IMG/VR virus record: IMGVR_UViG_3300033148_005058
Location: 1,187-65,186 of that record
DNA: 64,000 nucleotides
Source of the DNA: a virus
Taxonomy: Duplodnaviria > Caudoviricetes
Direction: 5' to 3' (one strand)
Each line of letters begins with the position of its first letter. The stretch's first letter is position 1. Both the position numbers and the translations under genes were made by a program. Positions 28,381 to 63,300 of this stretch are shown piece by piece. The notes beneath the pieces were generated by a model, which did no database searches, was not told where the DNA came from, and saw only the letters and a list, made by a program, of their open reading frames with translations.

Positions 28381-28704
28381 GCAATTTCTCCCCTCAAAAT
28401 TGAAAACTTCTCTAGGATGCCCTTAGCGGCGTTTTGTCTGCAAAAGGTATAGCTATATAGGCTTTGAGGCCCTTGAACTGAACACCCTCCAAAAATGCCT
28501 GCCAGTCTTATCGTTATTGTATAGTACTTTATGGTTTAGAATGAAATAACAATGCAAATCTGGTTTACTGATTACGGCGCTAAACACTCTCTCAAAGAGC
28601 CTTACAGAGCCCTACAGCGCCGTTTGTACCCCTACTTGACATGTTATACGTACTTATTATCGGTAAAGTAAAACAGTCTATAGAGTGCAATCGCTATCTG
28701 TAGT

Positions 28705-29481: not shown

Positions 29482-29715
29482 TTACTTTCTCCTTTCTTCG
29501 TCTGATTCGGGGGGTTTTAAGCCGTAGGCTCCCACAAAGTCGCCGCTCTGTATCATTTCCTCTCCAGTGTGCATATTGACAACTATGAATACTTGCCTGC
29601 CACATTGGCACCTTCCAACGGGATTTGCCCACGACGCTACTTGTGTGACCGTTACTACAGCGCCACACGTAGGACAAACTACGTCCTTACTGCGAGGACA
29701 AAACACGCTACCCAT
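29482..29715 (-). CDS. Small zinc-ribbon protein
   Basis: CPTCG..CQCG; start re-assigned to the ATG at 29715. Confidence 0.5.
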   Translation of the reverse strand: MGSVFCPRSKDVVCPTCGAVVTVTQVASWANPVGRCQCGRQVFIVVNMHTGEEMIQSGDFVGAYGLKPPESDEERRK

Positions 29716-44523: not shown

Positions 44524-45108
44524 ATGGAAATAGAAGTACTCGATGCCATAGATACAAAAGCGCTTCCCAGCGTTCTTGCTCAGCATGAGCTAGAGATTCG
44601 CGAGATGCTTTGCTCCGGTTGGACCCCAATTAGGGTACATCGTTTCCTCAAAGCGGTGCGCTCGGTTGAGGTGCCTCTACAGGACATCAGTGATTACCTC
44701 GGTAGCATCCCCAAGGCCGAACTTCTCGACTTTACAGCGCTACAGAAACGCTACAACCAGATCAACATCCAGGTAGATGCTATGGGTGAACTAGCCCGCT
44801 TACTTCGACTAACGTCCGACAGGCTAGGTGCTGCTTTGATGATAGAGGAGGCCAGCGGAACACGTCTGGCCTACGTAGATACCGTTACGGCAAGCTATTG
44901 GAAGATGCTGAGTGAGTATGTAGAGATACAGCAGTCAATAGGTGAGCTTCCTTCTACGAAGGGTAGCAACCCCCCTGTGCAACCTGGGGCTGCCGCTCAA
45001 CTGCTTGGAGGGAAGCCTTTGCCTTCTTTGCGTTCTTTGTTGCTTGAGGTTAAGTATGGACCTGACAACCAAAGACCTCCAACTAATCCGAGAGGCTCTA
45101 CTACGTAA
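44524..45108 (+). CDS. Putative terminase small subunit
   Basis: HTH-like N-terminus and helical body; overlaps the terminase large subunit start. Confidence 0.55.
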   Translation: MEIEVLDAIDTKALPSVLAQHELEIREMLCSGWTPIRVHRFLKAVRSVEVPLQDISDYLGSIPKAELLDFTALQKRYNQINIQVDAMGELARLLRLTSDRLGAALMIEEASGTRLAYVDTVTASYWKMLSEYVEIQQSIGELPSTKGSNPPVQPGAAAQLLGGKPLPSLRSLLLEVKYGPDNQRPPTNPRGSTT

Positions 45109-46921
45109 CTTCTCCCTAACGGATCTGGAAAAGTCGGGGCGCTTAGACGATCCCCCTACTCAGGAGTTATGGAAACAGTTGGCAGAGATCGACCTTGAGT
45201 TCTTTGCTGGCTTCTACTTGCCCAATCACTTCGATTGCGCCCCCGCCCCTTTGCACAAAGAGACCTACCGAACTATGGAGCAGGCAATTAGTTCACCAGG
45301 CAAGATAAACAATGCCTTAGTATGGCCTAGAGGCTTTGGAAAGACTACTACTACAACGTTAGCGCTCCCCCTCTGGTGTATTTGCTTCAGAAAGCGCCGG
45401 TTTATCCCCATTATATCCGACTCACATACGCAGGCCAAGCAACAGTTGGCCACCATCAAAGACGAGATAGAACATAATGATCGTATCAAAGAGGATTTTG
45501 GAGAGCTTCAAGGGGCGAAGTGGCAAGAGGACGATATTACCACAGCTAACAGGGTGAAATTGATAGCCCTGGGTGCGCGTATGAAGATTCGAGGGCGCAA
45601 GTTTCTGCAGTACCGCCCCGACTTGATCATTGTAGACGACTCCGAGAACCTGGAAGGGGTACAATCCGCTACCAGAAGAGAAGCCCACCGCAAATGGTTC
45701 TGGCGCTCAGTTATGAACGCCGGTTGGTCTGATACCAAAGTGTTTGTAGTGGGCAACTTTTTGCACTTCGATTGCTTGCTACAACATTTGGTAGACAACC
45801 CTATGTTCCACTCACGTGTGTATCAGGCAGTACCAGCTTGGGCAGAGCGTGAGGACTTGTGGGAGCATTGGCGTGGGTTAGTTACTAACCTGACAGACAA
45901 AAACAAGGAGAAGACTGCCTATGCCTACTTCTTGGCCCATAAAGAGGAGATGCTCAAAGGCGCGGTCTCCGCCTGGCCGGAGGCATTTAGTTACTACGAC
46001 TTAATGCTCACGCGGGTAGCTGGGGGTGAAGCGGCATTTGCTACTGAGCTACAAAACGAGCCTGTAGACCCCAAGAGTAGGTTGTTCAAAAAGTGGGAGA
46101 CTTTCCGCATGGAATACCGGTCAGCTTCCGCTGGCCTGGCGGAGGGAATCTGGCTAATACCCTCGAATGGGCAGGTGGCAGTGCCACTTAGCGCTTGCAC
46201 AATTTTCGGCTTCACAGACCCTAGCATGGGCGGCTCAGTACAGTCAGATTACTCGGCTATTACACTAATTGCCAAGGCACCTACTAGGCAGATGTTTGCA
46301 ATTGTTTCTGACATCGAACGCAGACCACCAGATCGCCTGATCAATGCGCAGAATAAATGGGCCAAAGAGTATCCCATTGCCCGCTGGCGGATTGAGAAGA
46401 ATGCTTTCCAGGCGCTTTTTGCTACAGAGTCCGCCCGCCGGTCGATGGAAGAGGGCGTTTACCTGCCTGTAGAGCCCTACAACCAGCTTTCTAACAAGCA
46501 AATGCGGATCAATTCTCTACAGCCCGATTTGGAGAACGGCTACTTGATGATCCTGGAGAATGGCCAGTCATTGCTCAAGAAAGAGCTTAGAGAGTGGCCC
46601 ATGGGAGCCTATGATGATGGCCTGGATTCCCTGGAAGGCTGCCGAACGCTTGCTAAGAGCTTTGAATCACAGATCTCGACGGAACTAATCCAGGCTAAAG
46701 CACATGAGTTTGCGCCCAATCAGGCACCTGGAGCAGATATACGCATTCCACTAGGTACAGATCCTTTTGCCAAGTATGATAAGATGGCCGATAAGACAAT
46801 TTATGACTTGCAAGTAGCTGCTGCCAGGAAACAGGCAACAGCAGAAGGGAGGGACCCAGATGTAGCACAGGAGGAAATACCTGTACCGGTAGAGATATTT
46901 GTTCCGATGATGTTCGCATAA
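45056..46921 (+). CDS. terL: Terminase large subunit
   Basis: Walker A PRGFGKTT, Walker B LIIVDD, nuclease FTDPS..DYSA..DDGLDSL; start re-assigned to MDLTTK. Confidence 0.93.
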   Translation: MDLTTKDLQLIREALLRNFSLTDLEKSGRLDDPPTQELWKQLAEIDLEFFAGFYLPNHFDCAPAPLHKETYRTMEQAISSPGKINNALVWPRGFGKTTTTTLALPLWCICFRKRRFIPIISDSHTQAKQQLATIKDEIEHNDRIKEDFGELQGAKWQEDDITTANRVKLIALGARMKIRGRKFLQYRPDLIIVDDSENLEGVQSATRREAHRKWFWRSVMNAGWSDTKVFVVGNFLHFDCLLQHLVDNPMFHSRVYQAVPAWAEREDLWEHWRGLVTNLTDKNKEKTAYAYFLAHKEEMLKGAVSAWPEAFSYYDLMLTRVAGGEAAFATELQNEPVDPKSRLFKKWETFRMEYRSASAGLAEGIWLIPSNGQVAVPLSACTIFGFTDPSMGGSVQSDYSAITLIAKAPTRQMFAIVSDIERRPPDRLINAQNKWAKEYPIARWRIEKNAFQALFATESARRSMEEGVYLPVEPYNQLSNKQMRINSLQPDLENGYLMILENGQSLLKKELREWPMGAYDDGLDSLEGCRTLAKSFESQISTELIQAKAHEFAPNQAPGADIRIPLGTDPFAKYDKMADKTIYDLQVAAARKQATAEGRDPDVAQEEIPVPVEIFVPMMFA

Positions 46922-46937: not shown

Positions 46938-48758
46938 ATGAAACACGATCCGATACCGATTATTATTCCGACATTCAATGCTGTACACCATCTCAAGCGA
47001 TGTATTTCTACTCTGACACAACGCACTCTCAGGGACTACCATGTTTATGTGGCAGATGATTGCTCTCCTCAAACTGCGCTGCAAGAGTATCTGAACGATA
47101 TTTCCGCCCTCGCTAATATCACGGTGTTCAAAGCGCGGACGCGGAAGGGCTACGCAGAGATTAACAACTGGGCAATAGCACAAATACCCCCCTCGGAGTA
47201 CCTCTGCTTGCTGAACTCAGACATCGAACCGCTGGAGGGGTGGCTGACCGCTATGGCAGAGGAGTTAGACACTGACTCGAAGGTAGGGATTGTAGGAGCC
47301 CGCCTACTTTACCCAGATACAAAGGGCGCGCCCCACCAACTAACGATCCAGCACGCGGGGGTGGCTCGAACCGCAGATAATCTACCCTACCATCCTTTCC
47401 GGGGGCAGCCTGTCGATTACGAACCGGCGGCTCGACGACGAGAGATCAACGCAGTTACATTTGCGTGTGCGCTTATTCGACGTAGTTTGTGGGATCAGCA
47501 GGGTGGACTCGACGAGGGCTACGCCGGCGGTAACTTCGAGGACGTGGACTTTTGCTGGCGTGCTAGAGATGCGGGCTGGAAGGTCATTTATCAGCCCAAG
47601 GCTACCTTGTACCACTACGAACACGGTTCTGGGACTGAATGGGTTGAGAAGCATTCTTACACAAACAGCATCCGGCTACGCAAAACGTTTGCCGGTTTGG
47701 GGAGCGATGAACACTTGTTCAATCTGTCGCCGACGATGTCAGATGGGAGCCCTGTACCAGGTGTCGAAATAGAAGAAGAAGAAGAAGAGGAAAAGATAGA
47801 AGTAGAAGAGCCCGCGCAACCTCCGGAAGACGCATTAGACTCCCCTGTGCAGCCTACGACAGCGTCTCTAAAGTTTGCTCTCTCTGTAATCATTCCTGTA
47901 TATAACCGTCGAGAGCATCTTTATCTGTGCCTGTGCGCTTTGGAGCGGTGCCTGGATCACTACAAGAAGCCCTTAGAGGTCATTGTAGTAGATGACGGTT
48001 CCACTGACGATCCACTAGGTGTGATGCTGGAGTTCCAAGATCGCTTTGATTTGCAATATAGGTGGCAACCACATCATGGTTATAGAGCATCCTTGGCGTA
48101 TAATCGAGGGTGCGCTATAGCGCGTGGAGAGGCTTTCTTGCTTTTGGGTTCTGATATTTTACTAGAAGCCCCTTCGCTGGTACACCTGATGAATCTGCAC
48201 GCGGCTAACCCTGATGCGCTTATTGCAGGACAGTACGACTGGCTGCATCCTATGCAAATCCACCCGTATGACGTTTATTCTAATTGGGAGGCAATTGTAG
48301 AGGAAACTTTGCCCCCTACCCCTTTTGGACGAAGACTCAAAGGGATTATTGGGACAGATCCACGATTTTTAGAGCGCCCAGAACTGTTCGAGGGCGCTCC
48401 GCAAGCGCAATATGCAGCTCAACTATTTGCTGATGTTTTGATGTTTCCCAAACACGTCTACAATGCTCTTGGAGGCTTCGATGAGACGATGGTTACACAC
48501 GGGGGGCAGGACTGCGAATTGAGTATCAGGTGTCAACAGGCAGGCTACCCAGCGATTTTTACAAAGCTAGTACACGGCTACCATATCTATCATGACAGGG
48601 ATCAAAAAGCGCACCGCAAAACGCTAGCGGAGAATGTTTTGTATATAATGACCAAGCACGACCTTGCTGCGGTAGGACTTCAAGTGCAGGGTACAGGCGA
48701 GGATATTTTTATTGCACCTAGTTATAGAGGAGGACCAGAGAAACATGCCAAAGCATAA
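46938..48758 (+). CDS. Double-domain GT2 glycosyltransferase
   Basis: IIIPTFN/ADDCS/LNSD/FEDVDFC, then VIIPVYN/VDDGS/GGFDE; poly-Glu linker. Confidence 0.9.
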   Translation: MKHDPIPIIIPTFNAVHHLKRCISTLTQRTLRDYHVYVADDCSPQTALQEYLNDISALANITVFKARTRKGYAEINNWAIAQIPPSEYLCLLNSDIEPLEGWLTAMAEELDTDSKVGIVGARLLYPDTKGAPHQLTIQHAGVARTADNLPYHPFRGQPVDYEPAARRREINAVTFACALIRRSLWDQQGGLDEGYAGGNFEDVDFCWRARDAGWKVIYQPKATLYHYEHGSGTEWVEKHSYTNSIRLRKTFAGLGSDEHLFNLSPTMSDGSPVPGVEIEEEEEEEKIEVEEPAQPPEDALDSPVQPTTASLKFALSVIIPVYNRREHLYLCLCALERCLDHYKKPLEVIVVDDGSTDDPLGVMLEFQDRFDLQYRWQPHHGYRASLAYNRGCAIARGEAFLLLGSDILLEAPSLVHLMNLHAANPDALIAGQYDWLHPMQIHPYDVYSNWEAIVEETLPPTPFGRRLKGIIGTDPRFLERPELFEGAPQAQYAAQLFADVLMFPKHVYNALGGFDETMVTHGGQDCELSIRCQQAGYPAIFTKLVHGYHIYHDRDQKAHRKTLAENVLYIMTKHDLAAVGLQVQGTGEDIFIAPSYRGGPEKHAKA

Positions 48759-49506
48759 GCACATTAGTGTAGTGATGGCGGTGCATAATCGCATAGAACA
48801 TGTCCACAACGCGTTGCAGGCATGGTCGCAGCAGACCCGCAGGGACTTTACGTTAGTGGTTGCAGACGATGCGAGTACGGAACCCATTAGGGAACTAGCA
48901 CTTCAATATAGTCGCAGTTTCCATGTCAGACATGTGTACTCAGGCGGCGTTTTGCCTCTCGGAGTCGCTGCTAACCTAAACGTGGGTACTAAATCGGTTC
49001 CAAAGGCCACTACCCACATTTGGTATACCGATGGAGATATTCTCTTTGCGCCAGACGCTATTGAGAATGCCTACAAACACATTAAGCGGTATTCCAAACG
49101 GGTCCTTGCTGGCCGCTATGATTGGATACCCGCCTCTGGAGATCGCTCTAATGCTAGTCCTGACCACCGTTTGGGGGTGCATGGCAAGACGTGGTTCAAT
49201 GGGAGGCTTCTAAAGTCTTGCAGGGCCGTTTTGGGGGCTAATATCATTATTCCCATACAGGCTTGGCATGATATTGGCGGGTGGGATGAGCATATTCCGG
49301 GAGCTAATGCCGATGATTGCGATTTCGGATGGAGCCTGACGGATGCAGGATACCACCTGCTGACCTGCAATGATATTACCGGATTCCATCAATGGCACCC
49401 CCGAAATGAGATAGAATTAGCCCGCTACAAAGAATCCATGCCCTACATTTTCCGTAAGCATGGGCAAGCTGTTCCGGCACAATATAGGAAATATGACCAT
49501 GCCTAG
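48745..49506 (+). CDS. GT2 glycosyltransferase
   Basis: VVMAVHNR, ADDAS, TDGD, GGWDE, HQWH. Confidence 0.88.
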   Translation: MPKHKHISVVMAVHNRIEHVHNALQAWSQQTRRDFTLVVADDASTEPIRELALQYSRSFHVRHVYSGGVLPLGVAANLNVGTKSVPKATTHIWYTDGDILFAPDAIENAYKHIKRYSKRVLAGRYDWIPASGDRSNASPDHRLGVHGKTWFNGRLLKSCRAVLGANIIIPIQAWHDIGGWDEHIPGANADDCDFGWSLTDAGYHLLTCNDITGFHQWHPRNEIELARYKESMPYIFRKHGQAVPAQYRKYDHA

Positions 49507-50506
49507 AGTGCTCTACGATGGAACTGAGGTAGAAGCCTCTGAGCCCCGCCTGTGGCCCATTGAGTGGATCAACTTCAGGTGCCATCCCTGTACTGATTGG
49601 GAAGGTGTTTATAAATACCTGGATGGGCGTCTGGAAGAGAAGCCTATTCTTCTCTGCAAGCACTGTCTGGTTGTTTTAGATGGGTGGCATAGATTAGCCA
49701 GTTGGTGGCGAGAAGGCCGCCGGTACGTTCCGGTTCAATTAACTGACACCCACCTGGGAGGCTCTCACGATGAGTGTCACATCAATGAGGTGCCTTGGAT
49801 GTCTACGTTACAACCTTGGGCAAGTCTCGACTGTGTATCAGGAAGTTATTTGGAAGACGATTTTCAACATCCTCTCTTTGCGGCGGAGGCAGCAACGATT
49901 AGAGGGTTAGGTCCTCCCAGGCTACCCCCTTTGCGCTTGTGGGAGCATGTTAGGGCAACCCTGTTTCTTGGAGTGCTTCAAGGACGACAGGTACTAGATG
50001 TAGGCACCCGTGAGAGTCTATTGCCCGGCTACTTAGCTAGTAAGGGTGCTTCTGTAACAGCAATTGACCTAGATACGCAGCAGATCAGGGAGGCCCCAGG
50101 AGTAGTTGTTCAACAAGCCGATGCTACAAAACTACCCTTTGAAGATAACAGCTTCGACATTGTTATCAGCACAGCCTGCATTAAGCATATCCCAGAAGAC
50201 ACATTAGCAGTCTCTGAAATGCTACGGGTACTGAAGCCTCATCGTTTGCTAGCGCTGACGTTTGATTTCGGGCAGAAGTATGAAGAGCTTCCAAGCCTTT
50301 CTACGGGGAGGCGTGTTTACGACAAGGAGGCTATTTATCGCCAGCTAATTGACCCATTCCAGGGGCAGGCAGCCCTTTGCAGGCCAGCTAACTTTGATCG
50401 CAGTAATTGGGATGATTGGCCTATTAAAGTACAGTCACCTGCTACTTTTGCACGAGGAGTAAATATCCAAACCGCCTTTGTTTTATTACGAAAGGATCAG
50501 CAGTGA
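49493..50506 (+). CDS. ParB-like N-terminal domain fused to a class I SAM methyltransferase
   Basis: VLDGWHRL; VLDVG, DATKLPFEDNSFD, EMLRVLKP. Confidence 0.8.
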   Translation: MTMPRVLYDGTEVEASEPRLWPIEWINFRCHPCTDWEGVYKYLDGRLEEKPILLCKHCLVVLDGWHRLASWWREGRRYVPVQLTDTHLGGSHDECHINEVPWMSTLQPWASLDCVSGSYLEDDFQHPLFAAEAATIRGLGPPRLPPLRLWEHVRATLFLGVLQGRQVLDVGTRESLLPGYLASKGASVTAIDLDTQQIREAPGVVVQQADATKLPFEDNSFDIVISTACIKHIPEDTLAVSEMLRVLKPHRLLALTFDFGQKYEELPSLSTGRRVYDKEAIYRQLIDPFQGQAALCRPANFDRSNWDDWPIKVQSPATFARGVNIQTAFVLLRKDQQ

Positions 50507-51546
50507 AAATAGCCTTTGTTTACAATGCAGGGCGTCCTTCTGCCTTCAAGGGGAAGACATATGAAATGGCAGATAGTGGAGGCTCTGAGGGTTCTGCGGT
50601 AAACTACGCATTTGCCTTGGTCTCTTTAGGGCATGAAGTGCATATGTACACCCCTGGAACTTCTCCAGTGACTTACAGGGGGGTAGAGTGGAGAGATATC
50701 CAGACTCGCGCGCGCTTTGAGGAAAAGTATGATGCAGCCATTGCTATACGCTTTCCTCTTGCCCTTCGGGGCATGGCTGCTAAAGTCAAGGCACTATACT
50801 GTTGCGATCCAGCAGTGTCTATACTCCCTGCCTATATAGACTCCGGCGATGTCCACTTAGTCATTACTATCAGTGAGCATCAGACACAGCGATTCCGAAA
50901 GTTATATGCAATTTCAGAGGAGATGTTTCTGATAAGCAATGCAGGAGTAGTATGGGCAGATTACGACCGCTCCAATGTCGTTAAGAGACGAGGGAGATGT
51001 ATTTATTGTAGTGTCCCTCAGCGAGGGTTACGGGCATTAGAAGGTATCTGGCCACTAATCCGTCAACAAGTCCCTTGGGCTACATTGCACGTTACAGGTG
51101 ATATGGAGCTGTGGGGAATCCAAAACGACCCTCGGATCGAAGATCTCTGTAGACGAATGGAGGAGCTTGCCGGGGTAACAATGCTGGGGTTACTTTCTAG
51201 GGAGGAACTGATCCAAGAGCAGCTACAGAGTCAGGTTATGCTACTCCCAGGGAATCCAATATCGCCTGAGATGTGCTGCATGGCTGCTATGGAATGTGCT
51301 GCTGCGCGCAACGCGCTTCTTGTGACAGATTTGTATGCGCTACCTGAGAGAGTAATAGGAGGTCATACAGGATATATCGTCCCAAGGGGAGCTAACTGGC
51401 ATCGAAGGTACGCTGCGACAGCGGTGCAGCTTCTGATGAGCCTGGACTTATCTGTGATGCAGTATTGGGCACGCGCTGTAGAGCGAGAGCACGATTATGG
51501 GGTGCTGGCCCAACAATGGGTAAGACGATTGGAGGAACTATTGTGA
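50503..51546 (+). CDS. GT4 (GT-B) glycosyltransferase
   Basis: GGSEG, YCSVPQRGL, EMCCMAAME, ALPE. Confidence 0.85.
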   Translation: MKIAFVYNAGRPSAFKGKTYEMADSGGSEGSAVNYAFALVSLGHEVHMYTPGTSPVTYRGVEWRDIQTRARFEEKYDAAIAIRFPLALRGMAAKVKALYCCDPAVSILPAYIDSGDVHLVITISEHQTQRFRKLYAISEEMFLISNAGVVWADYDRSNVVKRRGRCIYCSVPQRGLRALEGIWPLIRQQVPWATLHVTGDMELWGIQNDPRIEDLCRRMEELAGVTMLGLLSREELIQEQLQSQVMLLPGNPISPEMCCMAAMECAAARNALLVTDLYALPERVIGGHTGYIVPRGANWHRRYAATAVQLLMSLDLSVMQYWARAVEREHDYGVLAQQWVRRLEELL

Positions 51547-52109
51547 CACTTCCGCAGGTATATCCACAGGCGAAACTGGCGTATCGAGAGAACATCGCTT
51601 TCGGACAAAACGTTATTATTGATGACTTTGTGTTCATCGTCAGTCGAAGATTGACTCGCCTGGGAGACTTTGTTCACATCGCATCCTTTGCCTCCATCAC
51701 CGGAGGGGGAGAGTGTAATATAGGAGCCTACTCCACGCTTTCTAGCGGGGCAAGGATATTTACCGGCACAGAGGATATTTCGGGCGACAGCCTTCTTGGA
51801 GCAGCTATTCCGGAGCCGTTTCGCGTTGCTATTCGCTCGCGGGTAGAGATCGGGAAGCATTGTATGGTGGGGGCTAACTCAGTTATCCTTCCAGGAGTAG
51901 TTATCCCTGATGGTACCGTAGTTGGTGCAATGTCTCTTGTATTGCAGAACACCACGCTGGAACCCTGGAGTATCTATGCAGGGTGCCCAGTAAGGAAACT
52001 GCGAAAGCGGCCCAAGGAACGCATACTAGAGTTGGAAGCTGCCTTTGTCCGAGAGCAGCACCGGAAGAGAATGTGGGAAACATCTACTCCGAGGCCGGAG
52101 AAATCATGA
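51543..52109 (+). CDS. Hexapeptide-repeat sugar N/O-acetyltransferase (VioB-like)
   Basis: IIDDFVFI..LGDFVHIA, VGANSVILPGV, IYAGCP. Confidence 0.85.
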   Translation: MTLPQVYPQAKLAYRENIAFGQNVIIDDFVFIVSRRLTRLGDFVHIASFASITGGGECNIGAYSTLSSGARIFTGTEDISGDSLLGAAIPEPFRVAIRSRVEIGKHCMVGANSVILPGVVIPDGTVVGAMSLVLQNTTLEPWSIYAGCPVRKLRKRPKERILELEAAFVREQHRKRMWETSTPRPEKS

Positions 52110-53302
52110 AGAAACTGGCAATCTTCGGAGGGCCACCAGCGTTTAAAGAGCCAAAGCACGTGGGGCGTCCTAACATGGCTGACTCAAAGAAGATACTTCA
52201 TCGCTTTAAGGAAGTTCTCGATAGTCACTGGCTTACCAACAATGGAAGACAAGTACAGCAATTGGAGGCTCGGATTTGCGCTGCGTTGGATATACCTTGG
52301 TGCGTAGCTGTAGCCAATGGGACATTAGGTTTAGAGATAGCGGCGGGAGCTTTGATGCCTGTCCTTGGAGAGGTTATTATGCCCTCGTTCACCTTCATAG
52401 CGACGCCTAATGCACTTGCTTGGCGTGGATACACACCTATTTTTGCAGATATTGATCCTGATACGCATGTTTTGGATCCCAAGGATGTAGAACGCAAGAT
52501 CACGGACCACACAGTTGGCATACTTGGGGTGCATCTTTGGGGCACCCCCTGTGCCCCTGGACAACTTGCAACAATAGCTGCAAAATACAGATTAGCTTTA
52601 TTCTTTGATGCAGCACACGCTTTTCGTTGTGGCCCTCCATGGGAGCGTATTGGCCATTATGGAAATTGTGAGGTATTCTCCTTCCATGCTACCAAGTTTT
52701 TCAATTCTATTGAAGGTGGCGCTCTAGTAACGTCTAGTACAGCTTTAGCGGCGCGTTTTAGAAGAATGCGGAACTTTGGCTTTTTGGGCGATGGAACACA
52801 TACAACTTCTGAACTGGGTATCAATGCTAAAATGAGTGAGTTTCACGCTGCCGTTGGTTTGTTAAACATTGAAGAGATGCCAAGAATTATTACACATAAT
52901 ATCCAGAATTATGAACTTTATAGAGAAGGGCTTGACAGCCCTCTTATTTGGTGGTATCCTATACGTAACGATAGCAATTTCCAGTATGTTGTTATGAAAG
53001 TGCTTGGGGACGATCTTTCAGCGGATATGCTTGTAAAGGTGCTTCAAGCGGAGAATATCCTCGCTCGAAGGTACTTTTCACCCCCTTGTCACAAAATGGA
53101 TCCATATAATAAGCGTCTGTGGGATCTTCCAGTAACGGAGGAGGTTGCTTATAGAACGGTTGTTTTGCCCACTGGTTTGGCTATGAGTCAAGAGGACGTT
53201 AGTAAAGTTTGCGATGTGATTAGATATTGTTTTGCTCATATCGAGGAGGTAAATAAGGCAGATGGAAAAGAAAAAGTATCCTTGCCCTGGAAGCGGGATT
53301 AG
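52106..53302 (+). CDS. DegT/DnrJ/EryC1/StrS PLP sugar aminotransferase (DesI/VioA-like C4-aminotransferase)
   Basis: LAIFGGPPAF..VGRPN, GVHLWG, FDAAHA and the PLP lysine motif SFHATK. Confidence 0.92.
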   Translation: MKKLAIFGGPPAFKEPKHVGRPNMADSKKILHRFKEVLDSHWLTNNGRQVQQLEARICAALDIPWCVAVANGTLGLEIAAGALMPVLGEVIMPSFTFIATPNALAWRGYTPIFADIDPDTHVLDPKDVERKITDHTVGILGVHLWGTPCAPGQLATIAAKYRLALFFDAAHAFRCGPPWERIGHYGNCEVFSFHATKFFNSIEGGALVTSSTALAARFRRMRNFGFLGDGTHTTSELGINAKMSEFHAAVGLLNIEEMPRIITHNIQNYELYREGLDSPLIWWYPIRNDSNFQYVVMKVLGDDLSADMLVKVLQAENILARRYFSPPCHKMDPYNKRLWDLPVTEEVAYRTVVLPTGLAMSQEDVSKVCDVIRYCFAHIEEVNKADGKEKVSLPWKRD

Positions 53303-53389
53303 AAGTGGCGGTGCAGGTCGAAAAGCGGGACGCGGTAAGGGCAAAGGTCCTCGCGGCGTACCAATCGGGAAGAAATAGGAGGAAATGTT

Positions 53390-54211
53390 ATGGAGAGCTC
53401 TTTCAGTATGGAGGGATCTCTAGCTACTAGGATAGCTAGGGCAGTGCAGATTCTGGGGCCTAGATTCTTGTGGAAGGTTCGTAACCTACCCAACATGTGT
53501 CGTGGGTGGCGCGTTGTAATCACCCGGGTGTTCAACCTCTCAGGCATTATTGGGCGGCTGTACATCCGTGTGCAAAAGGCAAATGGAGACCTTATTGACT
53601 ACGGCCTTGTAAGTCTTCGCGTTGTGACCACCGCGTTCGTCGATCTCATGGTGGATCAGCTCATTGCAGAATCATCCGTCTGGGGAGATTTCAAGTATCA
53701 CGACTCTGGTATTGGCACAACTAGTGCTGCCATTGGTGATACTGATATAGAAACTACCGATGGTGAGGCTAGAGCTGTGGGTACCCAAGTGGAGAATGCT
53801 CATAATATCTATGAGAGCGTTGGAACTATTGCGTATACTTCTACTAAAGCAATCACTGAGCACGGTCTGTTCAATGCCTCTACTGGGGTTACACTACTGG
53901 ACCGCCACACGTTTAGTGCGGTCAATGTGGAAAATGGTGACAGCATTAAACTTGGTGCCCTCGCAGCGTAATCTGCGATGGAAAACCCTCTCTGATCAAA
54001 TCGAACCCTGAGAAGGCAACGAACTGGAAGCGAAAGCACCAGAAGAGACTGAGCGAGAGGGGAGCCGACCGGGAAACCGAGGCTCGTGCAACAGTCCGAA
54101 CTTTGGGGAAAAGGAACCCAAAGAGATAAGCAGAAATGGCTTATCCAGCGCAAAGCGCTAGTAACAAATTGCGAGTTCACCTATAGACTAACTTGTACGC
54201 CAGGAGGCTGA
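53390..54211 (+). CDS. Virion structural protein, two exons (53390-53946 and 54172-54211)
   Basis: AITEHGLFNA motif; splicing restores the expected C-terminus ..NVENGDSIEFTYRLTCTPGG*. Confidence 0.8.
53947..54171 (+). ncRNA. Group I self-splicing intron, 225 nt, no ORF
   Basis: Exon ends in U paired U.G in P1 (GCAU/GUGC); P10 CGAGUU/AACUUG; P3 CCCUCUC/GAGAGGG; P7 GACUG/CAGUC; P8 and P9 hairpins; terminal G. Confidence 0.88.
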
Positions 54212-54214
54212 GAG

Positions 54215-54703
54215 ATGAAAATTGTCAAAGTAAGAATTCGGCGGGGTGGCGTAGGAGAGGATATGATGGTCTATCCCGCTCCTTACAATGCCCAAGAAGT
54301 AGACCGTTCTGGAGTAGGCCCCTGTGGAATCAATGGGACAGGGGCGTATTCTGGTGGTATTGGTAGAGGACAGGATCACGAGTTTTGTCTGATCCTTCTG
54401 GATGATGAGGTGGCTGATCGCTATCTTGAGAGTCCGGACATGGAAGAGGTATCTGCTGCTGTAGCTGATTCCCTGATGGAGGAGTGGCGTCTCGATAACG
54501 ATGAGTCAGAGGAGGTTGTAACAGATCCGGCAAGGCTTCAAGCTATTGTGGCGAAACAGGGGGCTGGAATAGCTCTCTCGCAAGAAGACCTAGATGCCTT
54601 AGACCCAGAGAAACCTACCAGAGGGATCAATAAGCGCTTGCAGCCGATGAGTGTACTTGTTGCTAAAACGGGTAAGACACTCAGTCCTGTGGGAGTAAAG
54701 TAA
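54215..54703 (+). CDS. Hypothetical protein
   Basis: 162 aa, GGAGG RBS within exon 2 of the upstream gene. Confidence 0.6.
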   Translation: MKIVKVRIRRGGVGEDMMVYPAPYNAQEVDRSGVGPCGINGTGAYSGGIGRGQDHEFCLILLDDEVADRYLESPDMEEVSAAVADSLMEEWRLDNDESEEVVTDPARLQAIVAKQGAGIALSQEDLDALDPEKPTRGINKRLQPMSVLVAKTGKTLSPVGVK

Positions 54704-54707
54704 ATTA

Positions 54708-55292
54708 GTGGCCCAGGTTTGTATCTCCGTAGCAACAAAGGGACATATGCACGCGGCCACCGTTGAGTGGTTGCTGCGTGCATTCGTCCAACTTGCTCCC
54801 GATGTGATCGTGCATATTGTAAGGGATCCTAATCCTCTACAACACGCCCGCTGTGAGCAGGTAAGGCGTTTTTTGGCCACAGGTTGCTCTCACATCTTTT
54901 TACTAGATTCCGATTGTGTACCACAAGATAGGACTATTCAGAAACTACTAGCGCATCAGCAGTTGATTGTAGCAGCCCCCCATCCTACGATAAAGGGTAA
55001 CGAGATGGGCTTAATGGTGCTAGATCGCGATGATAAAGGTGCCTATGTACAACATCGACCGCTAATGGGAATGCAGGGGCCTAATGTTGTAGTCGGTTGC
55101 GCAGGAATGTTGATCCATAGAGCTGTGTTCGATATTATCCACGATCCCTGGTTTAGATGTCTGTACGATGAACTTGGATTCATAGTTTGCACTGAGGATT
55201 TTGATTTTTGCAACCGAGCTCACGCTGCAGGCATAGATGTTTGGGCTGATTGTGACCTAGTACAGCAACATTGGGTTGAGGTGCCTATTTAA
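54708..55292 (+). CDS. GT-A fold glycosyltransferase
   Basis: IFLLDSD, GCAGMLIHRAVF, TEDFDFC. Confidence 0.8.
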   Translation: MAQVCISVATKGHMHAATVEWLLRAFVQLAPDVIVHIVRDPNPLQHARCEQVRRFLATGCSHIFLLDSDCVPQDRTIQKLLAHQQLIVAAPHPTIKGNEMGLMVLDRDDKGAYVQHRPLMGMQGPNVVVGCAGMLIHRAVFDIIHDPWFRCLYDELGFIVCTEDFDFCNRAHAAGIDVWADCDLVQQHWVEVPI

Positions 55293-55294
55293 CT

Positions 55295-56380
55295 ATGGCA
55301 CACAATGTTATTAGTGTAGATTACCAGTTAGATAAGCACTATAAACATATAGGCTTTTCAGCCTCCATCAGTAGTAGCTATGCCAGTCCAGGAGCCTATC
55401 CTGTGGGTATCTCCTGGGACGGTACAAACGTTATTAGCACAGACATTGATTCACTTAAACATTACAAACATGAGGGCTTTTCAGCTTCGGTCAATAGTAG
55501 CTATGCCTACCCAGGTCTTCAGTCACAAGGGATCTCCTGGGATGGCACAAATGTTATTAGTGCAGCTTATACTTCAAACAAGCACTATAAGCATGTAGGC
55601 TTTTCGGCTTCTGTCAATAGCAGCTATACCAGTCCCAGTCTCCAACCGAGAGGCATCACCTGGGATGGCGCAAACGTTATTTGTACAGATGACTACGAAG
55701 ATAGGCATTACAAGCACAACGGCTTTTCGAGTTCTATTAGCTCTAGCTATGCCAGCCCGTGGAATAGATCTCTGGGTATTACCTGGGATAACACAAACGT
55801 CCTCAGTGCAGACGATGGCGCCGATAAACATTATAAACATATTGGCTTTTCAGCTTCTATGGATAGTAGTTATGCAACGGGCACCGCCAAACCTTCAGAT
55901 CTCTCCTGGGATGGAAGATATGGTCCAATCTCCCAGGCAGTGGCAGGCGCGCTTACATTTGCCGGGAAATTACACAAAAAATTATCGCCAACTCTTACTG
56001 GAGCTCTTACATTTGCTAGTTCTCTAACTAAGCAGGTTAAGCGCGTTCTTGTGGGTCAAGCGATTCCCTACTGTATATTACGATTTCGAGATATTGCTCT
56101 TGTAAACTTTAGGGGGGCAGTGGCTCCTGCAGGGTCCCTATCAAAACGAACTAAATTTCACAAAACACTCACAGGTAATTTAGTGCCGATGAGTACACTT
56201 ATACTTCCTAAGATGGCTTTTACCAGTTTTATTAGTAACTTGACTACAGCAGGAACTTTGCAGAAGAAGTATCAGACAGTCCTTGCAGGTGCTTTAGCTC
56301 CAAGTGGTGTTTTGCTTCACTCAGGACAGGTACCTGTTTATAGGCATCCAACGATGCGACAGCGAATACGCAGAGGGTAG
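55295..56380 (+). CDS. Virion protein with five 41-aa repeats (beta-propeller) and GALT repeats
   Basis: Five NVIS..KHYKHxGFSAS..SY..P..GIxWDG units at 123-bp period; paralogous to the N-terminus of 7965..11060. Confidence 0.7.
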   Translation: MAHNVISVDYQLDKHYKHIGFSASISSSYASPGAYPVGISWDGTNVISTDIDSLKHYKHEGFSASVNSSYAYPGLQSQGISWDGTNVISAAYTSNKHYKHVGFSASVNSSYTSPSLQPRGITWDGANVICTDDYEDRHYKHNGFSSSISSSYASPWNRSLGITWDNTNVLSADDGADKHYKHIGFSASMDSSYATGTAKPSDLSWDGRYGPISQAVAGALTFAGKLHKKLSPTLTGALTFASSLTKQVKRVLVGQAIPYCILRFRDIALVNFRGAVAPAGSLSKRTKFHKTLTGNLVPMSTLILPKMAFTSFISNLTTAGTLQKKYQTVLAGALAPSGVLLHSGQVPVYRHPTMRQRIRRG

Positions 56381-56836: not shown

Positions 56837-58234
56837 ATGACTGACCAGAAACAACCTGGATGGCTCAATCGTTTGGTTGCTAAGGTAAAGAAGACCTTTC
56901 GTCCAGCCGTTCCAGCACCTAAGAATACATCGACATCAGGTGTAACTAATGCTTCTGTAGGTACGCTAAAGTCGGCTTTTTTCAATGTCAAATCGAAACG
57001 TGCAGCAATTTATTCTGACGCTGAAGAGATGGATGCTACTGTAGACGAAGTTGCTACAGCGCTGGATATTCTAGCAGACAATTCAGTGAATTCTGAGGAT
57101 GGCACTAGAGGAGCCTTTCGAGTTATTTTCCAAAAAGGCGAGACGCCCATTGTGGAGCAAGTTATAAAAAGGACCAGGTGGCGCGAGAAAGCCTATGCTA
57201 TTGCACGTGATACTCTTTTATATGGGGATACGTTCCTACAATATGTTATAGATCGAGATCTTCGGATCGTTCGCCTGATGTATATGCCTCCAAAATCTAT
57301 GATACGAAATGAGGATCAGTTTGGTTTGCTTTTAGAGGGGAAGGATGAGGGTAAAGCTGCTTTTGAGCAATATCAACCTGGGACGAACCAACGTATTGCC
57401 TGGTGGTACCCCTGGCAGATAGAACATATTCGCTGGAATCGCAGTGGTGCGCGTGTATATGGGCGTTCCTTACTCTATACAGCACGGACTGCCTGGAAGA
57501 AATGGCAGGCAATGGAAGAGGCATTGGTTATCAACTGGCTGACCAGAGCCTTTGCACGGCTATTATTTATTCTCGATGTTACTGGAAAAACGCCTAAAGA
57601 AGCTGAAGCATATATCAAAGCCTTTGCCAGATCTTTGACTACTAGGAACATTGCCTCTGGAGTGAAGGGCGACGAAGCCCTATCAGTGGTGAAGGACATT
57701 TATATTGGCCGAGCAATGCACGATATGGGTGGGCGGCTTTATCCAGGGCAGACGGATGTTAAGGTATTAGACACGTCCAATTCAGGCTTTTTGAACTTGA
57801 ATCCTATTGAATACTACCAGAACAAAGTGCTTACGTCCTTACGAGTGCCTAAAGCACATCTAGGCTTGGAGCGGGACATCAATGCTAAAGCAACGCTACA
57901 ACAACAAGATAGGCGTTTTTTGAGGATTCTCCGTAGGATCCAGGCAATGCTCAGTGAATCTATCGATCACACGATTAAACTCCAATTAGCCTTACTGGGT
58001 ATCGATCCTGATAGCGTTGAATACACGATTATGTGGCCTACGCCTAGCTGGGCGGATATGTTGGATGAAAGTGCTGCTACAAAGAACTTTGCTGAAGCAG
58101 ATGAAAAGTTGCTGGCCTGGGGCCTAGTAGATTCAGAATATGTTCAAACTAAGCATTTAGGAATGTCTGCAGTAGAAATTGATAGGATAAAGGCTACACC
58201 AAAACAAGAGGTGCCGCCAGAAGGAGAAAAATAA
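56837..58234 (+). CDS. Portal protein (T4 gp20-like)
   Basis: EVATALDILAD, LYGD.F, MEEALVI..LTRA..R..F.LDV, EYYQNK..LRVP, QD.RF. Confidence 0.88.
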   Translation: MTDQKQPGWLNRLVAKVKKTFRPAVPAPKNTSTSGVTNASVGTLKSAFFNVKSKRAAIYSDAEEMDATVDEVATALDILADNSVNSEDGTRGAFRVIFQKGETPIVEQVIKRTRWREKAYAIARDTLLYGDTFLQYVIDRDLRIVRLMYMPPKSMIRNEDQFGLLLEGKDEGKAAFEQYQPGTNQRIAWWYPWQIEHIRWNRSGARVYGRSLLYTARTAWKKWQAMEEALVINWLTRAFARLLFILDVTGKTPKEAEAYIKAFARSLTTRNIASGVKGDEALSVVKDIYIGRAMHDMGGRLYPGQTDVKVLDTSNSGFLNLNPIEYYQNKVLTSLRVPKAHLGLERDINAKATLQQQDRRFLRILRRIQAMLSESIDHTIKLQLALLGIDPDSVEYTIMWPTPSWADMLDESAATKNFAEADEKLLAWGLVDSEYVQTKHLGMSAVEIDRIKATPKQEVPPEGEK

Positions 58235-59645: not shown

Positions 59646-60848
59646 GTGGTGAATAAAGGTTTTGTACCTGATATGCAAGTGTTGGATCCAGGAGCAGCCT
59701 ATTCTGACTTTCTAAAAGGTAGGCGAGCTTATCTGGATGCTCTCGTAAGCAAGTGGGAATGGTTCTTGGGCTCAGGTACCAAGAAAAATCCTATGGAAGC
59801 CATACCACAGAAGCTATGGGAGCCTATGGCAATTCTGTTTGAGAATCAGAGCGTTATCAGTTCGGGGAGCCGTGTCCTTGAACAGACAATGACAACGGAC
59901 GTGACCTTGCCGGTCAAGTATGCTTTGCCAATTGTCCGTAAGGTTTTCCCGCAATTGATCCTGGCAAAGATCGCATCTATCCAGCCGATGCCCCTAACTT
60001 CGGGTGGAGTAATGCAGATTTTCTATCAGGATTTCAAACGCGAGGATGTTAGTCCAGAGACTAGCTTAACGGCTATGGACTCGGATTACGCCTTCAAGGG
60101 TGAGAACGAAGTTCCAAACCGCGTAAAGATGGAGATTACTAAGGAAACAGTTACCGCCACCAAGGACATCTTGGGTGCAAGCTGGTCCACTGAGGTTCAG
60201 GAGGATGCTCAGGGAGCTCTGAACGTTGATGTGGAGTCCGAGCTAGTCTCTAACTGTGCAGAAGAGATCCTTAGAGAGCTTGAATACCGTAGCCTTCGAG
60301 AGATCTTGAACGGCGCAGGCGCGGGCAATGTGAACTGGAGTTCTACAGTTGGTACAGGGCATACAAATAGGGAGTGGTATGAGACACTCCATCATGCCTT
60401 TATTGATGCTGAAAGTTTAATTTATGCACAGCGGTATCGAAATGCTGACTGGATCATCGGTGGCCGTACTCTTATTAGTTACGCGATGAAATCAGCAACT
60501 TGGAAACCTGCTGAGAAAATGTCACCGCCAGGGCCTCGCTCAATATCTGGGGTGGAGTTTGTAGGACGTGTCGAGGGCTTCTGGGATATTTACATGACCC
60601 CTTATATCCCTGCTGCACGAGGGATTATGGGTTGTTACCCCCGAAGCACTCTTGATACGGGCTACGTATTCGCTCCTTATATTCCATTGGCCCCTATGCC
60701 TTTGATCTACGCAGAGTTCAAAGGCCCATCGGATGCGACAATGCCTGGTGCTTATGTGAATACGGACAAGTGGTCCAGAAACGTTCGCACCCGCAATGCC
60801 AAGAAGATGGTTGTTTCTGAACTGTATTCAACAATCACAATTACTTAA
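59646..60848 (+). CDS. Major capsid protein (T4 gp23-like)
   Basis: LPIVRKVFPQL..SIQPM, WS.E..ED, EILRE, GYVFAPYIPL. Confidence 0.9.
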   Translation: MVNKGFVPDMQVLDPGAAYSDFLKGRRAYLDALVSKWEWFLGSGTKKNPMEAIPQKLWEPMAILFENQSVISSGSRVLEQTMTTDVTLPVKYALPIVRKVFPQLILAKIASIQPMPLTSGGVMQIFYQDFKREDVSPETSLTAMDSDYAFKGENEVPNRVKMEITKETVTATKDILGASWSTEVQEDAQGALNVDVESELVSNCAEEILRELEYRSLREILNGAGAGNVNWSSTVGTGHTNREWYETLHHAFIDAESLIYAQRYRNADWIIGGRTLISYAMKSATWKPAEKMSPPGPRSISGVEFVGRVEGFWDIYMTPYIPAARGIMGCYPRSTLDTGYVFAPYIPLAPMPLIYAEFKGPSDATMPGAYVNTDKWSRNVRTRNAKKMVVSELYSTITIT

Positions 60849-60874: not shown

Positions 60875-62740
60875 ATGCGAGTACGTAATCGAACAGGCGT
60901 TACGCAGATAGCGCCGAAAGGCAGCTTCCTCCCTCCGGGTATCTGGTTAGATGTCCCGGAGGAGGTAAGCTATGCCGATGCTGTATGGTTACACACACAG
61001 CGAATGGCCGATATTGCAGATATTCAAGATACAGAAGATCTCCTATGGAAGTCTCCAAGGGGGACATATCTGTATTGGCTAAGCCCTTTTAGTATGGGAG
61101 ATGGTTACGCGACTGCTGCTGAGAACCTGATACATGCTCTAAAAGGACAAGGGTGTCAAATAGAGATCCATCAATGCTGGTTTTTAACAACAGAGGGGCT
61201 CAGAACAGAAACAATAGAGATGCTACGTAAGCCCGCAACGGAATTGTATAGGGTAGGCTTGTGTATGGCTACGCCTGGCGAGTTCAAAAAGTTGCCAACA
61301 CCCTATAGAATTGGACTGACAATGTATGAGTCAGATAATCCCTTAATAAATCTACCAGAGTGGAAGCATGACTGTGGGGATGTTGATTTGCTAGTAGTTC
61401 CCTGCCAGTATTGTAAGGACGTTTTTGAGCAATTTGTAAAAGTACCGGTCAAGGTATCACCCTTGGCTATCAATCCACTTTACCATACAGCACGTAGGCG
61501 CGAGCCTAAAGACACATTTACTTTTATTACCTTTGGGACTTTATCTGGCCGGAAGGCTCCTTTGGAAACGCTAGAGGCGTTCAAGAAAGCCTTTCCATTG
61601 GCGCAATATCCTAATGTACGATTCGAGTTCAAAACTCGTTTGGGCTATTTCGGTTGGGGCCAAAACCAACTTCCAGACCTAGATGATCCCCGGGTGAGCA
61701 TTATCAGCGCAGATTGGTATTCCCAACAGATGCTTGACTGGATGCACAATGCGGATGCTATGGTATTTGCATCTAAAGGGGAAGGATTTGGAATGCCTCC
61801 TAGAGAGGCCATCGCTACAGGCTTGCCGACAATTCTATCAGAACACACAGGGTTGATTCCAATGTGTGATTCACAATACACTTACCCTATTCCAGTTGGC
61901 AAGGTTGAGGATTCTCCGTTGGGCGGCAACTGGTATCTGCCTGATTGGGACGCTCTTATTGAAACTATGCGTTGGGTGTATAGCCATCGAGAAGAAGCCT
62001 ATCAAAAAGGGCATCTCGCAGCAAAGTGGTTTGCAAGAGAACATGGGCCGGAAGTAGTAGGCCAGCATTTGCTTGATATTATCGAAGATATAGATCCTAA
62101 AGATTCAGCCGTTCGGCGTAATAGACAGCCTACTGCGCCGAAGCAAACTGTTGCTGACCATAAAGAGTTTTTTGATTGGCTAAGTAGCCTAGTTCCTCCA
62201 TCTAGCACTATCTGGGTTATGGGTGTAGGCGAGGGACTCCTTTACAAGGAATTGATACATCGAGGTTATGTTGTTGTAGGAGTAATACCTCCGGAAGATG
62301 AAAGCCGTGCGCGAAATAAACTTTTGAGTAGGGGAGTTGATACTCCGCAATTGCTTATTTGTCCCAAAGGGCTGCTTGACCCCCCTGTGCTCCGGCGGGC
62401 TAAAATGGCAATGCCTGCCGCTTGTGTTAGTATGGGTGTGCTACAACGGTTAGGAAACAGAGAGATCGTTCAAAGGATAAACAACCAACTAGGAGTTACT
62501 ACTCAGGTACTTTTCTCTGTCCCTTCGGTGTATTATCCCACATTCTATGAAGAGGGATCTCGCCTATTGCAGCATAGGAACTGGATGGACATTTTGGATA
62601 CTTTATCTTGTTCTTTGGATTCTTACGGTAAAGATGGTAGATTCCTGCGAGGCCGGGTATACAAGACAAGGTTAGCTAAAGGTGTTGCCCAGCGCCGTCA
62701 AGGTAGAGTTCTTCAAGGCGTATGGCACCCGAATAATTAG
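60875..62740 (+). CDS. GT4 glycosyltransferase fused to a degenerate methyltransferase-like domain
   Basis: DGYA, GRKA, SKGEGFGMPPREA.ATGLP; C-terminal VMGVGEG Rossmann-like segment. Confidence 0.85.
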   Translation: MRVRNRTGVTQIAPKGSFLPPGIWLDVPEEVSYADAVWLHTQRMADIADIQDTEDLLWKSPRGTYLYWLSPFSMGDGYATAAENLIHALKGQGCQIEIHQCWFLTTEGLRTETIEMLRKPATELYRVGLCMATPGEFKKLPTPYRIGLTMYESDNPLINLPEWKHDCGDVDLLVVPCQYCKDVFEQFVKVPVKVSPLAINPLYHTARRREPKDTFTFITFGTLSGRKAPLETLEAFKKAFPLAQYPNVRFEFKTRLGYFGWGQNQLPDLDDPRVSIISADWYSQQMLDWMHNADAMVFASKGEGFGMPPREAIATGLPTILSEHTGLIPMCDSQYTYPIPVGKVEDSPLGGNWYLPDWDALIETMRWVYSHREEAYQKGHLAAKWFAREHGPEVVGQHLLDIIEDIDPKDSAVRRNRQPTAPKQTVADHKEFFDWLSSLVPPSSTIWVMGVGEGLLYKELIHRGYVVVGVIPPEDESRARNKLLSRGVDTPQLLICPKGLLDPPVLRRAKMAMPAACVSMGVLQRLGNREIVQRINNQLGVTTQVLFSVPSVYYPTFYEEGSRLLQHRNWMDILDTLSCSLDSYGKDGRFLRGRVYKTRLAKGVAQRRQGRVLQGVWHPNN

Positions 62741-62748
62741 GAAATGCA

Positions 62749-63300
62749 ATGCTAGCAGAAGATCTCAGTTTGCACATTTTGGCCAAGAATGAAGAAGCTC
62801 TTTTGCCTCGGTTGTTAGAGCGGATGGACCCTTATGTCAGTGATATTGTTATTACCGACACAGGCTCTACAGATACTACTATTGCTTTAGCATTGGCTGC
62901 AGGTGCTCGGATATGCCAAACCACACTGGAGAGAGGCTTTGGGGAGGCCAGAAATGTCGGATTGAGTAGGGTTACTCTCCCATGGGTAATTCAAGTAGAT
63001 GCGGATGAGTGGCCGTCAGATGAGCTGCTACAGTGGCTTACTGGCTGGGTTCCCAATGCTGTTGTAGGAGGCGTTTGGATCCGTAGGCACAACTTGGTCG
63101 GTGGAAAAGCTATCGGGGAGCGTACCTTTGAGTGGCATCCGAGAATTTTCCGCAGTGGTTACAGATTTGTAGGGCTGCTGCATGAACACCCTGAAGCTCC
63201 TTATGAAACATTTGTGAGGGCTCCGGAAGAATGTCTCCTACTACACTACAAAACAGTAGTGCGGCAGGAACGGCAGAACGCTTTCTACGCTACGTTTTAA
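62749..63300 (+). CDS. GT2 glycosyltransferase
   Basis: AKNEE, DTGSTD, ARN, DADE, LHE. Confidence 0.88.
   Translation: MLAEDLSLHILAKNEEALLPRLLERMDPYVSDIVITDTGSTDTTIALALAAGARICQTTLERGFGEARNVGLSRVTLPWVIQVDADEWPSDELLQWLTGWVPNAVVGGVWIRRHNLVGGKAIGERTFEWHPRIFRSGYRFVGLLHEHPEAPYETFVRAPEECLLLHYKTVVRQERQNAFYATF

Follow-up and report, generated by a model that had tools for sequence, protein, structure and literature searches.

A phage gene carried on a 64,000-nucleotide stretch of IMG/VR virus record IMGVR_UViG_3300033148_005058 (positions 1,187 to 65,186; the whole stretch is called the window here, and all coordinates without a locus prefix refer to it) is interrupted close to its 3′ end by an insertion at 53947-54171. 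Judging from its sequence, we put the probability that this insertion is a group I intron without an open reading frame (ORF) at about 0.9. The intron is a clean new example from a large and already exemplified family of phage introns; it represents neither a new kind of element nor a new mechanism.

Splice junction and exon 2

The interrupted gene was listed as an ORF at 53390..53971, encoding a protein of 193 amino acids that ends in GDSIKLGALAA (C-terminus ..VENGDSIKLGALAA, followed by a stop). Removal of 53947-54171 joins GDSI to the peptide EFTYRLTCTPGG and a stop codon, and places the insertion 12 codons before the end of the gene. A scripted join of 53390-53946 to 54172-54211 yielded a protein of 198 amino acids with the C-terminus VENGDSIEFTYRLTCTPGG (GDSIEFTYRLTCTPGG), whose stop codon lies 3 nucleotides upstream of the next ATG, at 54215. 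Read directly from the sequence, the terminal base of exon 1 is T53946 and the terminal base of the insertion is G54171. Every pair of a U-ended exon and a G-ended insertion was then scanned up to 6 nucleotides from the proposed ends, and the single U(-1)/G(omega) pair that matched the sequence of homologs was U53946/G54171. The other in-frame joins near the junction either deleted a conserved glutamate or added Lys-Leu, and were rejected as neither form occurs in any homolog. A preliminary description of this DNA had proposed that removal of 53947-54171 joins AT to C within one codon and leaves the stop 3 nucleotides before the next gene; both the scripted join and the C-termini of homologs show this junction to be exact.

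Relatives of the host protein were collected at E ≤ 0.001, giving 1428 from 1722 candidates. Among the 120 best homologs, 114 had a tail of the uninterrupted type, ..GDSI(E/Q)(F/Y)TYxLTxxxGG (112 by motif and two as variants), and the exon 2 peptide was identical to seven uninterrupted homologs at 8-11 of its 12 residues. The remaining six, the window protein among them, had the read-through tails KLGALAA, NLCALAA or NFGALAA, which are the translation of the 5′ end of the insertion. At the DNA level, the codon was uninterrupted in 23 of 24 related loci in IMG/VR, the exception being L001, which carries a 226-nucleotide insertion at the same place. Because the uninterrupted form prevails in both sets, the homologs do not end in KLGALAA rather than xFTYxLT, a possibility that the preliminary description had named as fatal to its proposal. 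Gene callers nevertheless truncate the host protein, and the sequence collection holds 193-residue forms ending in KLGALAA.

Alternatively, the insertion might be a dead intron or another element that does not splice, leaving the gene shortened to its KLGALAA form and exon 2 as a decaying remnant. The absence of an Rfam match to the intron, described below, fits this view, and the sequencing runs listed for 53000-55000 included none from RNA. Exon 2 does not look like a remnant, however. It is in frame, and although the DNA of exon 1 is only 70% identical between the window and L001 (388 of 557 nucleotides), 35 of the 40 nucleotides of exon 2 are identical, the differences being four synonymous changes and one conservative Leu to Ile replacement over 12 codons. 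On the evidence of these substitutions, exon 2 is under selection at the protein level. The stop codon is still found 3 nucleotides before the next gene, all core helices of the intron are intact, and 153 of the 154 bases from its 5′ end through the 3′ strand of P7 are the same as in L001. The same insertion has moreover been kept in alleles that have diverged considerably, the six read-through alleles having 57-78% protein identity to the window protein. Finally, an AlphaFold model was made for an uninterrupted homolog (P0005), using an alignment of 51 sequences. In this model (mean predicted local distance difference test score, pLDDT, of 79), a beta-rich domain closes with a strand at residues 185-194, and the read-through form of the protein would, according to the model, lack this final beta-strand. 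We consider a dead or non-splicing insertion very improbable.

Still less probable, to the point of being almost negligible, is that the gap is crossed during translation, by ribosome hopping or bypassing, with the RNA left unchanged. The in-frame stop soon after the break and the resumption of the frame downstream would be expected of such a site. The gap is 225 nucleotides long, however, whereas the classical phage bypass, in T4 gene 60, spans about 50 nucleotides. The insertion also contains a covarying group I core, and it is homologous to an intron that is excised from RNA (Pope et al. 2013, PMC3706429). An intein, a group II intron and a translational bypass were all rejected on the in-frame stops, a length far short of that of group II introns, and the group I core.

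Intron structure and covariation

The helices of the intron are listed in Table 1. They follow one another in the order P3-P4-P5-P6-P7-P3′-P8-P7′, which is that of the pseudoknotted group I core, with P3 and P7 forming the pseudoknot around P4-P6. All of the pairings named in the preliminary description, namely P1 with its U.G pair, a P10 of 6 bp, P2, P3, P7, P8, three 3′ hairpins and the terminal G, were found again in the sequence or the fold. The predicted fold of the intron stretch was better than that of 200 out of 200 shuffled sequences (z = -4.9). By inspection, a single hairpin (P8) lies between P3′ and P7′, and there is no P7.1/P7.2 and no P5abc extension. Loops of the GNRA type, which usually stabilise such cores, are present as GAGA in L5 and as GAAA in L6a and L8. 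The G54047-C54096 pair of P7 is presumed to be the guanosine-binding pair; the sequence there, with G54045 and the bulged A54046 next to it, would fit the textbook P7. An in-frame TAA at 53969-53971, in the loop of P2 and 8 codons into the intron, ends the mis-called ORF; early in-frame stops are described as common among group I introns of protein genes in the account of Hausner et al. (2014, PMC3984707).

A core sequence of 19 nucleotides around P7 and P3′ was found to be present in other genes as well. An exact search for it in metagenomes returned six loci, comprising two copies of the L001 type, one copy of an intron hosted by a ribonucleotide reductase gene, and three chance matches (L031, L033 and L034), which were purine-rich and were rejected. 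As the exact pattern was too strict to add diversity, IMG/VR was searched with a looser pattern of two blocks, P7-J7/3 and J8/7-P7′, which gave 79 loci (L036-L114), 68 of them distinct. A P3 partner was sought up to 200 nucleotides upstream and was present in 54 of 69 rows, including the window. Most of the 15 rows without a partner had an endonuclease ORF upstream of P7; for L058, also without a partner, the pattern probably matched a structural gene by chance.

Forty-five of the 54 cores were aligned with MAFFT, after removal of those with a weak or distant P3 (L041, L044, L057, L080, L084 and L111) and of duplicates or near-duplicates (L053, L094 and L112). In this alignment 91.9% of 1302 cells were paired, compared with 36.6-44.1% when the partners were slid by 1-3 columns. 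Double-sided changes were seen in 22 of 29 pairs, and the covariation score was reached by none of 500 shuffles. The proportion of paired cells was 98.7% in P3, 78.2% in P4, 92.8% in P6, 91.4% in P8 and 100% in P7, which never varies. The 3′ domain was analysed in those sequences that had the loop motif AGAAAT(G/T) as well as TAACA in the tail, 23 from the family together with the intron of mycobacteriophage BAKA, a mis-cut L044 being dropped. P9 and P9.1 were paired in 85.1% of cells in these 24 sequences, as against 21.5-44.8% when slid, with double-sided changes in 12 of 14 pairs. The TAACA motif is invariant over the 24 aligned domains, which were chosen for it. A hairpin was found at the position of P9.2 in all 24 relatives when each was folded singly. 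Between the window and L001, 56 of 71 bases of the P9 region are identical, and the changes that fall within P9.1 and P9.2 compensate for one another. Because its helices covary in relatives, the structure is more than a chance fold.

A covariance model of the family core (R1) had one strong match in the window, which was the intron (98.9 bits; the window copy is in the seed). The L001 intron, which is outside the seed, obtained the same score, and the sole other match in the window was weak (E 0.14).

Several results weigh against the assignment of the insertion to group I. The Rfam model RF00028 gave no match anywhere in the window at its gathering threshold, none at E ≤ 10 on 53800-54300 (501 nucleotides) or 53935-54185 (251 nucleotides), and none on four related loci (L025, L027, L028 and L001). 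The window copy thus scores below both controls, the BAKA intron (28.6 bits, model positions 1-253) and the LUZ24 intron (40.8 bits). The invariance of P7 (45 of 45 cores) is a product of the search pattern and complementarity of P3 served as a selection filter, so that independent tests are limited to P4, P6, P8, P9 and P9.1. P4 has 3 bp in the window copy compared with 4 in most relatives, and the match of R1 to the BAKA intron, given below, is modest (19.8 bits, obtained with filters off in a search of 2.5 kb).

The Rfam result is not decisive, because two phage introns known from experiment to splice also fall below the gathering score of 50. These are the BAKA intron and the DNA polymerase intron of LUZ24, for which splicing in vivo is reported as confirmed (PMC10914365). 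By inspection, the architecture of RF00028 is that of the window intron. The covariance-model search that the preliminary description had called for therefore came out negative for the window intron, but both controls fell below the threshold too: RF00028 is insensitive to compact phage introns, missing this one and under-scoring two that are proven. As a simple core pattern already recovers 79 IMG/VR loci, many of which are in genes for head, portal, tail or ribonucleotide reductase, numerous gene calls in phages would be put right by a covariance model made for this family.

We infer that the window copy would splice, and that it would do so without the help of a protein. The steps proposed follow established group I chemistry. 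By forming P1, the guide sequence at 53949-58 would keep the exon 1 terminus in place, the splice site being marked by U53946.G53955, and a free guanosine bound in P7 would attack after U53946. The guide would then align exon 2 through P10 while the terminal G54171 occupied the guanosine site, and the exons would be ligated, restoring the isoleucine codon AT/C and the last 12 codons, which should encode the final beta-strand. On unspliced RNA, ribosomes would be stopped by the TAA in the P2 loop after 8 intron codons.

Splicing might instead depend on a cofactor supplied by the phage or its host, or take place conditionally, and would then restrict how much of the host protein is made, or when ('gating'). 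A compact intron with few peripheral elements and a P4 of just 3 bp could need such assistance, and PMC10914365 mentions phage group I introns whose splicing depends on conditions. The core-stabilising loops in L5, L6a and L8 are in place, however, and there is no maturase-like ORF in or beside the intron. Furthermore, the gene does not need control by splicing, because most of its alleles, by tail and by locus, are intronless. Splicing that depends on a cofactor or on conditions, with a gating role, is unlikely on this evidence. The intron is most likely a selfish element of nearly neutral phenotype and not a dedicated regulator, given that it carries no endonuclease gene.

Table 1. Positions of the interrupted gene, the parts of the intron and other genes in the window
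Feature	Position	Strand	Details
Exon 1 of host gene	53390..53946	+	Codons 1-185 and first two bases of the Ile-186 codon; final base U
Predicted group I intron, no ORF	53947..54171	+	225 nt; phase 2, Ile codon split AT/C
Exon 2	54172..54211	+	Last base of the Ile codon, then EFTYRLTCTPGG and stop
P1 hairpin	53943..53958	+	53943-53948/53953-53958, 6 bp; U53946.G53955 wobble at splice site; in minimum free energy fold
Internal guide sequence	53949-53958	+	Within P1 region
P10 strand of guide sequence	53949..53954	+	Pairs with 54172-54177, 5 Watson-Crick and 1 G.U; read from sequence
P2 hairpin TCGCAG/CTGCGA	53959..53981	+	53959-53966 with 53973-53978 and 53980-53981; loop CGTAAT
P3 5′ strand CCCTCTC	53986..53992	+	Pairs with 54055-54061; double-sided changes in 6/7 pairs; P3 also a filter
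P4	54001-54003/54020-54022	+	Encloses P5; pairs covary
P5	54007-54009/54014-54016	+	Loop GAGA; columns less well aligned, 78% paired
P6 and P6a	54024..54042	+	P6 54024-54027/54039-54042; P6a 54030-31/54036-37; GAAA loop; double-sided changes in 4/4 pairs
P7 5′ strand G(A)GACTG	54045..54051	+	Bulged A54046; pairs with 54092-54097
P3 3′ strand GAGAGGG	54055..54061	+	Supported by alignment
P8 and P8a	54062..54085	+	P8 54062-54066/54081-54085; P8a 54070-72/54077-79; GAAA loop; double-sided changes in 5/5 pairs
P7 3′ strand CAGTCC	54092..54097	+	Pairs with P7 5′ strand
P9 hairpin CTTTGGG/CCCAAAG	54101..54123	+	54101-07/54117-23; 86.3% paired; double-sided changes in 6/7 pairs
P9.1 hairpin GATAAGC/GCTTATC	54125..54145	+	54125-31/54139-45; conserved loop AGAAATG; 83.8% paired; double-sided changes in 6/7 pairs
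P9.2 hairpin AGCGC/GCGCT	54147..54159	+	54147-51/54155-59; compensatory differences between window and L001
3′ tail AGTAACAAATTG	54160..54171	+	Ends in terminal omega G54171
Tape measure protein	1950-7103		
Large terminase	44942-46921		
DegT aminotransferase	51983-53302		
Portal	56837-58234		
Major head protein	59646-60848		

Hosts, endonucleases and genomic context

The genes that flank members of the intron family were surveyed by comparing 127 flank ORFs at 64 family loci with PHROGs. Matches to a nuclease, mostly phrog_5046, were obtained at 29 loci; ORFs for endonucleases nearby are typical of mobile group I introns. The other matches were to the major head protein (16 loci), ribonucleotide reductase (10), portal (2-3), major tail protein (2), RtcB ligase (1) and a glycosyltransferase (1). 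With a major head protein flank at 16 of the 64 loci, this family departs from the generalisation, made in the preliminary description, that most group I introns of phages are found in DNA metabolism, terminase or lysin genes, and introns in phage capsid and tail genes have already been published (PMC3706429). One locus, L072, has two family cores on the same strand (601-644 and 844-886), 243 nucleotides apart. An endonuclease ORF precedes them, and the two may represent introns in tandem.

Splice sites could be predicted for the relatives hosted by ribonucleotide reductase genes by applying the U(-1)/G(omega) rule and requiring that the frame stay open, which restored the motif NPC(G/A/S)E and indicated that the codon for the catalytic cysteine is split. 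The predicted lengths were 175-206 nucleotides (L040, L075, L088, L096, L097 and L077), and for L025 and L027, scripted sites restored NPCGE and NPCAE with introns of 189 and 185 nucleotides. The first six are predicted to have a P1 of AUCCGU/GCGGAU, no P2 and a single 3′ hairpin. If they splice, they would rank among the shortest natural group I introns. The preliminary description had placed 225 nucleotides close to the smallest known, which is an overstatement: the window intron is small but not at the low end of its own family, because the reductase-hosted relatives are predicted to be shorter.

The phage genome is siphovirus-like and about 65 kb long, and the window covers the greater part of it. 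Between the terminase and the portal lies a series of sugar-modification genes, and the host gene is located among them. In relatives it is found beside genes for portal, head-tail adaptor, tail protein, terminase or endolysin. The host protein had no Pfam or PHROG family and no sequence relative in the PDB, where the best match was at chance level (E 0.79), and its listed relatives carried no name beyond 'hypothetical protein' in any source. No longer, fused forms of the protein were found, which is weak evidence. A match below threshold to PF23140, a podophage fibre protein family, was obtained for 3 of 51 members (best E 0.023), and the nearest Atlas cluster was automatically named 'tail fiber protein family' (0.98). 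The preliminary description had called the gene a virion structural gene. The assignment is no more than plausible, the hints towards it being the sub-threshold fibre-like leads and a position in the morphogenesis module. The ORF of 162 amino acids that follows the intron is an ordinary syntenic gene, present in intronless relatives as well.

The sugar-modification genes at 46938-55292 encode several glycosyltransferases, a methyltransferase, a hexapeptide transferase and the DegT-family aminotransferase, and two further glycosyltransferases are encoded downstream of the major head gene, at 60875-63300. This set suggests modification of glycans on the virion or on the host surface. Two other ORFs were noted in the window. 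One, at 55295-56380, encodes 361 amino acids with about five tandem repeats of about 36 residues (..KHYKHxGFSASxxSSYxxPxxxxxGISWDGTNVIS..) and had only a weak PHROG match. The other, at 19250-20392 on the minus strand in the replication module, encodes an ATPase of 381 amino acids that matches Pfam AAA_21 ('putative AbiEii toxin' type) with E 2.4e-32.

The intron itself, having no ORF within its 225 nucleotides, encodes no homing endonuclease. Nor was any homing-endonuclease family detected among the 77 ORFs of at least 70 amino acids that were scanned in the window, which bears out the statement of the preliminary description that none is visible there. The nearest thing to one was an exonuclease of the PD-(D/E)XK type, 23 kb away at 29711-30868, that has a zinc domain at its C-terminus.

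Endonuclease genes were, however, found next to the host gene in intronless relatives. In L002 (2104-2673, minus strand), and identically in L003 and L004, a free-standing ORF of 189 amino acids with an LDGDG motif lies 16 nucleotides past the stop codon of the host gene, on the opposite strand and about 55 nucleotides from the insertion site. It matched phrog_5046 with E 7.7e-18 and Pfam LAGLIDADG_3 with E 0.001, the latter below the cut-off. The phrog_5046 family is the one encoded inside many members of the window intron's family, and no intron core was found near the L002-L004 ORF. A different endonuclease, of the HNH type, directly follows the host gene in L020 (1917-2510). These arrangements suggest that the 3′ end of the host gene is a hotspot for selfish elements.

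The endonuclease-bearing allele differs from the window by synonymous changes around the site, reading GATTCGAT/CGAGTAC compared with GACAGCAT/CGAGTTC in the window (the slash marks the insertion site). If the endonuclease cut at or near GACAGCAT/CGAGTTC, the ORF-less intron could be mobilised in trans during co-infection, and could also shield its carrier by splitting the target. That an endonuclease of the L002 type does mobilise the window intron in this way (collaborative homing), or is kept from its target by it, is a tentative and rather doubtful proposal. Most likely the intron was either inherited or acquired, by recombination or by homing in trans.

Comparison with known systems

A tblastn search of 50,697 records of cultured phages gave no match for the host protein, and the window intron had no blastn match in cultured phages. 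The closest known system is provided by mycobacteriophage BAKA, whose minor tail gene contains a 265-nucleotide insertion without an ORF that was found by reverse transcription PCR (RT-PCR) to be spliced out (Pope et al. 2013, PMC3706429). The intron occupies 28,186-28,450 of JF937090, exon 1 ends in U and the intron in G, and a group I intron lacking an ORF is described for the minor tail gene of both BAKA and Optimus in the same paper. When the BAKA intron was compared with R1, the whole core model was matched, with 19.8 bits and an E value of 2e-4.

The two introns resemble one another well beyond the core. Both lack an ORF, have a U(-1).G pair in P1 and have a 6-bp P10 directly 5′ of the P1 strand. 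Both contain CGTAA in the loop of P2 and a GAAAACC lead into P3, followed by the same order of core elements, and in both the loop of P9.1 reads GCAGAAATGAC and the intron finishes in AGTAACAAAnnG with its terminal G. The BAKA intron is longer, at 265 compared with 225 nucleotides, mainly through a longer P8 region, and P7 and J8/7 read CAGACTA../..ATAGTCGG in BAKA compared with GAGACTG../..ACAGTCC in the window. The host gene of the BAKA intron and the phage lineage that carries it are unrelated to those of the window. The BAKA intron likewise sits in a late gene, with related phages described as lacking it, and its splicing is proven by RT-PCR (PMC3706429), whereas the window intron is known from its sequence alone. 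Because R1 matches the BAKA intron and the peripheral motifs are shared, the window intron is, as far as sequence comparison goes, related to and smaller than an intron whose splicing in vivo is established.

Many endonuclease-bearing members of the family have a phrog_5046 ORF upstream of P7, where the window copy has none. The psbA intron of S-PM2 and the endonuclease F-CphI reportedly form a parallel case of an ORF-less intron with a free-standing endonuclease. Such a pairing is also described by Hausner et al. (2014, PMC3984707). The window resembles the system in that account in its ORF-less intron, and relatives L002-L004 resemble it in having a free-standing endonuclease gene, of a family that is intron-encoded elsewhere, beside the host gene. 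The difference is that here the endonuclease and the intron are in separate genomes and the endonuclease-bearing relatives are intronless. The capsid-gene intron reported for LittleE (PMC3706429) and the endonuclease-bearing members of the family are the same kind of element in structural genes. The window supplies a further case of a late phage gene that contains a group I intron without an ORF, for which mycobacteriophages BAKA and LittleE, as reported in PMC3706429, are the precedents.

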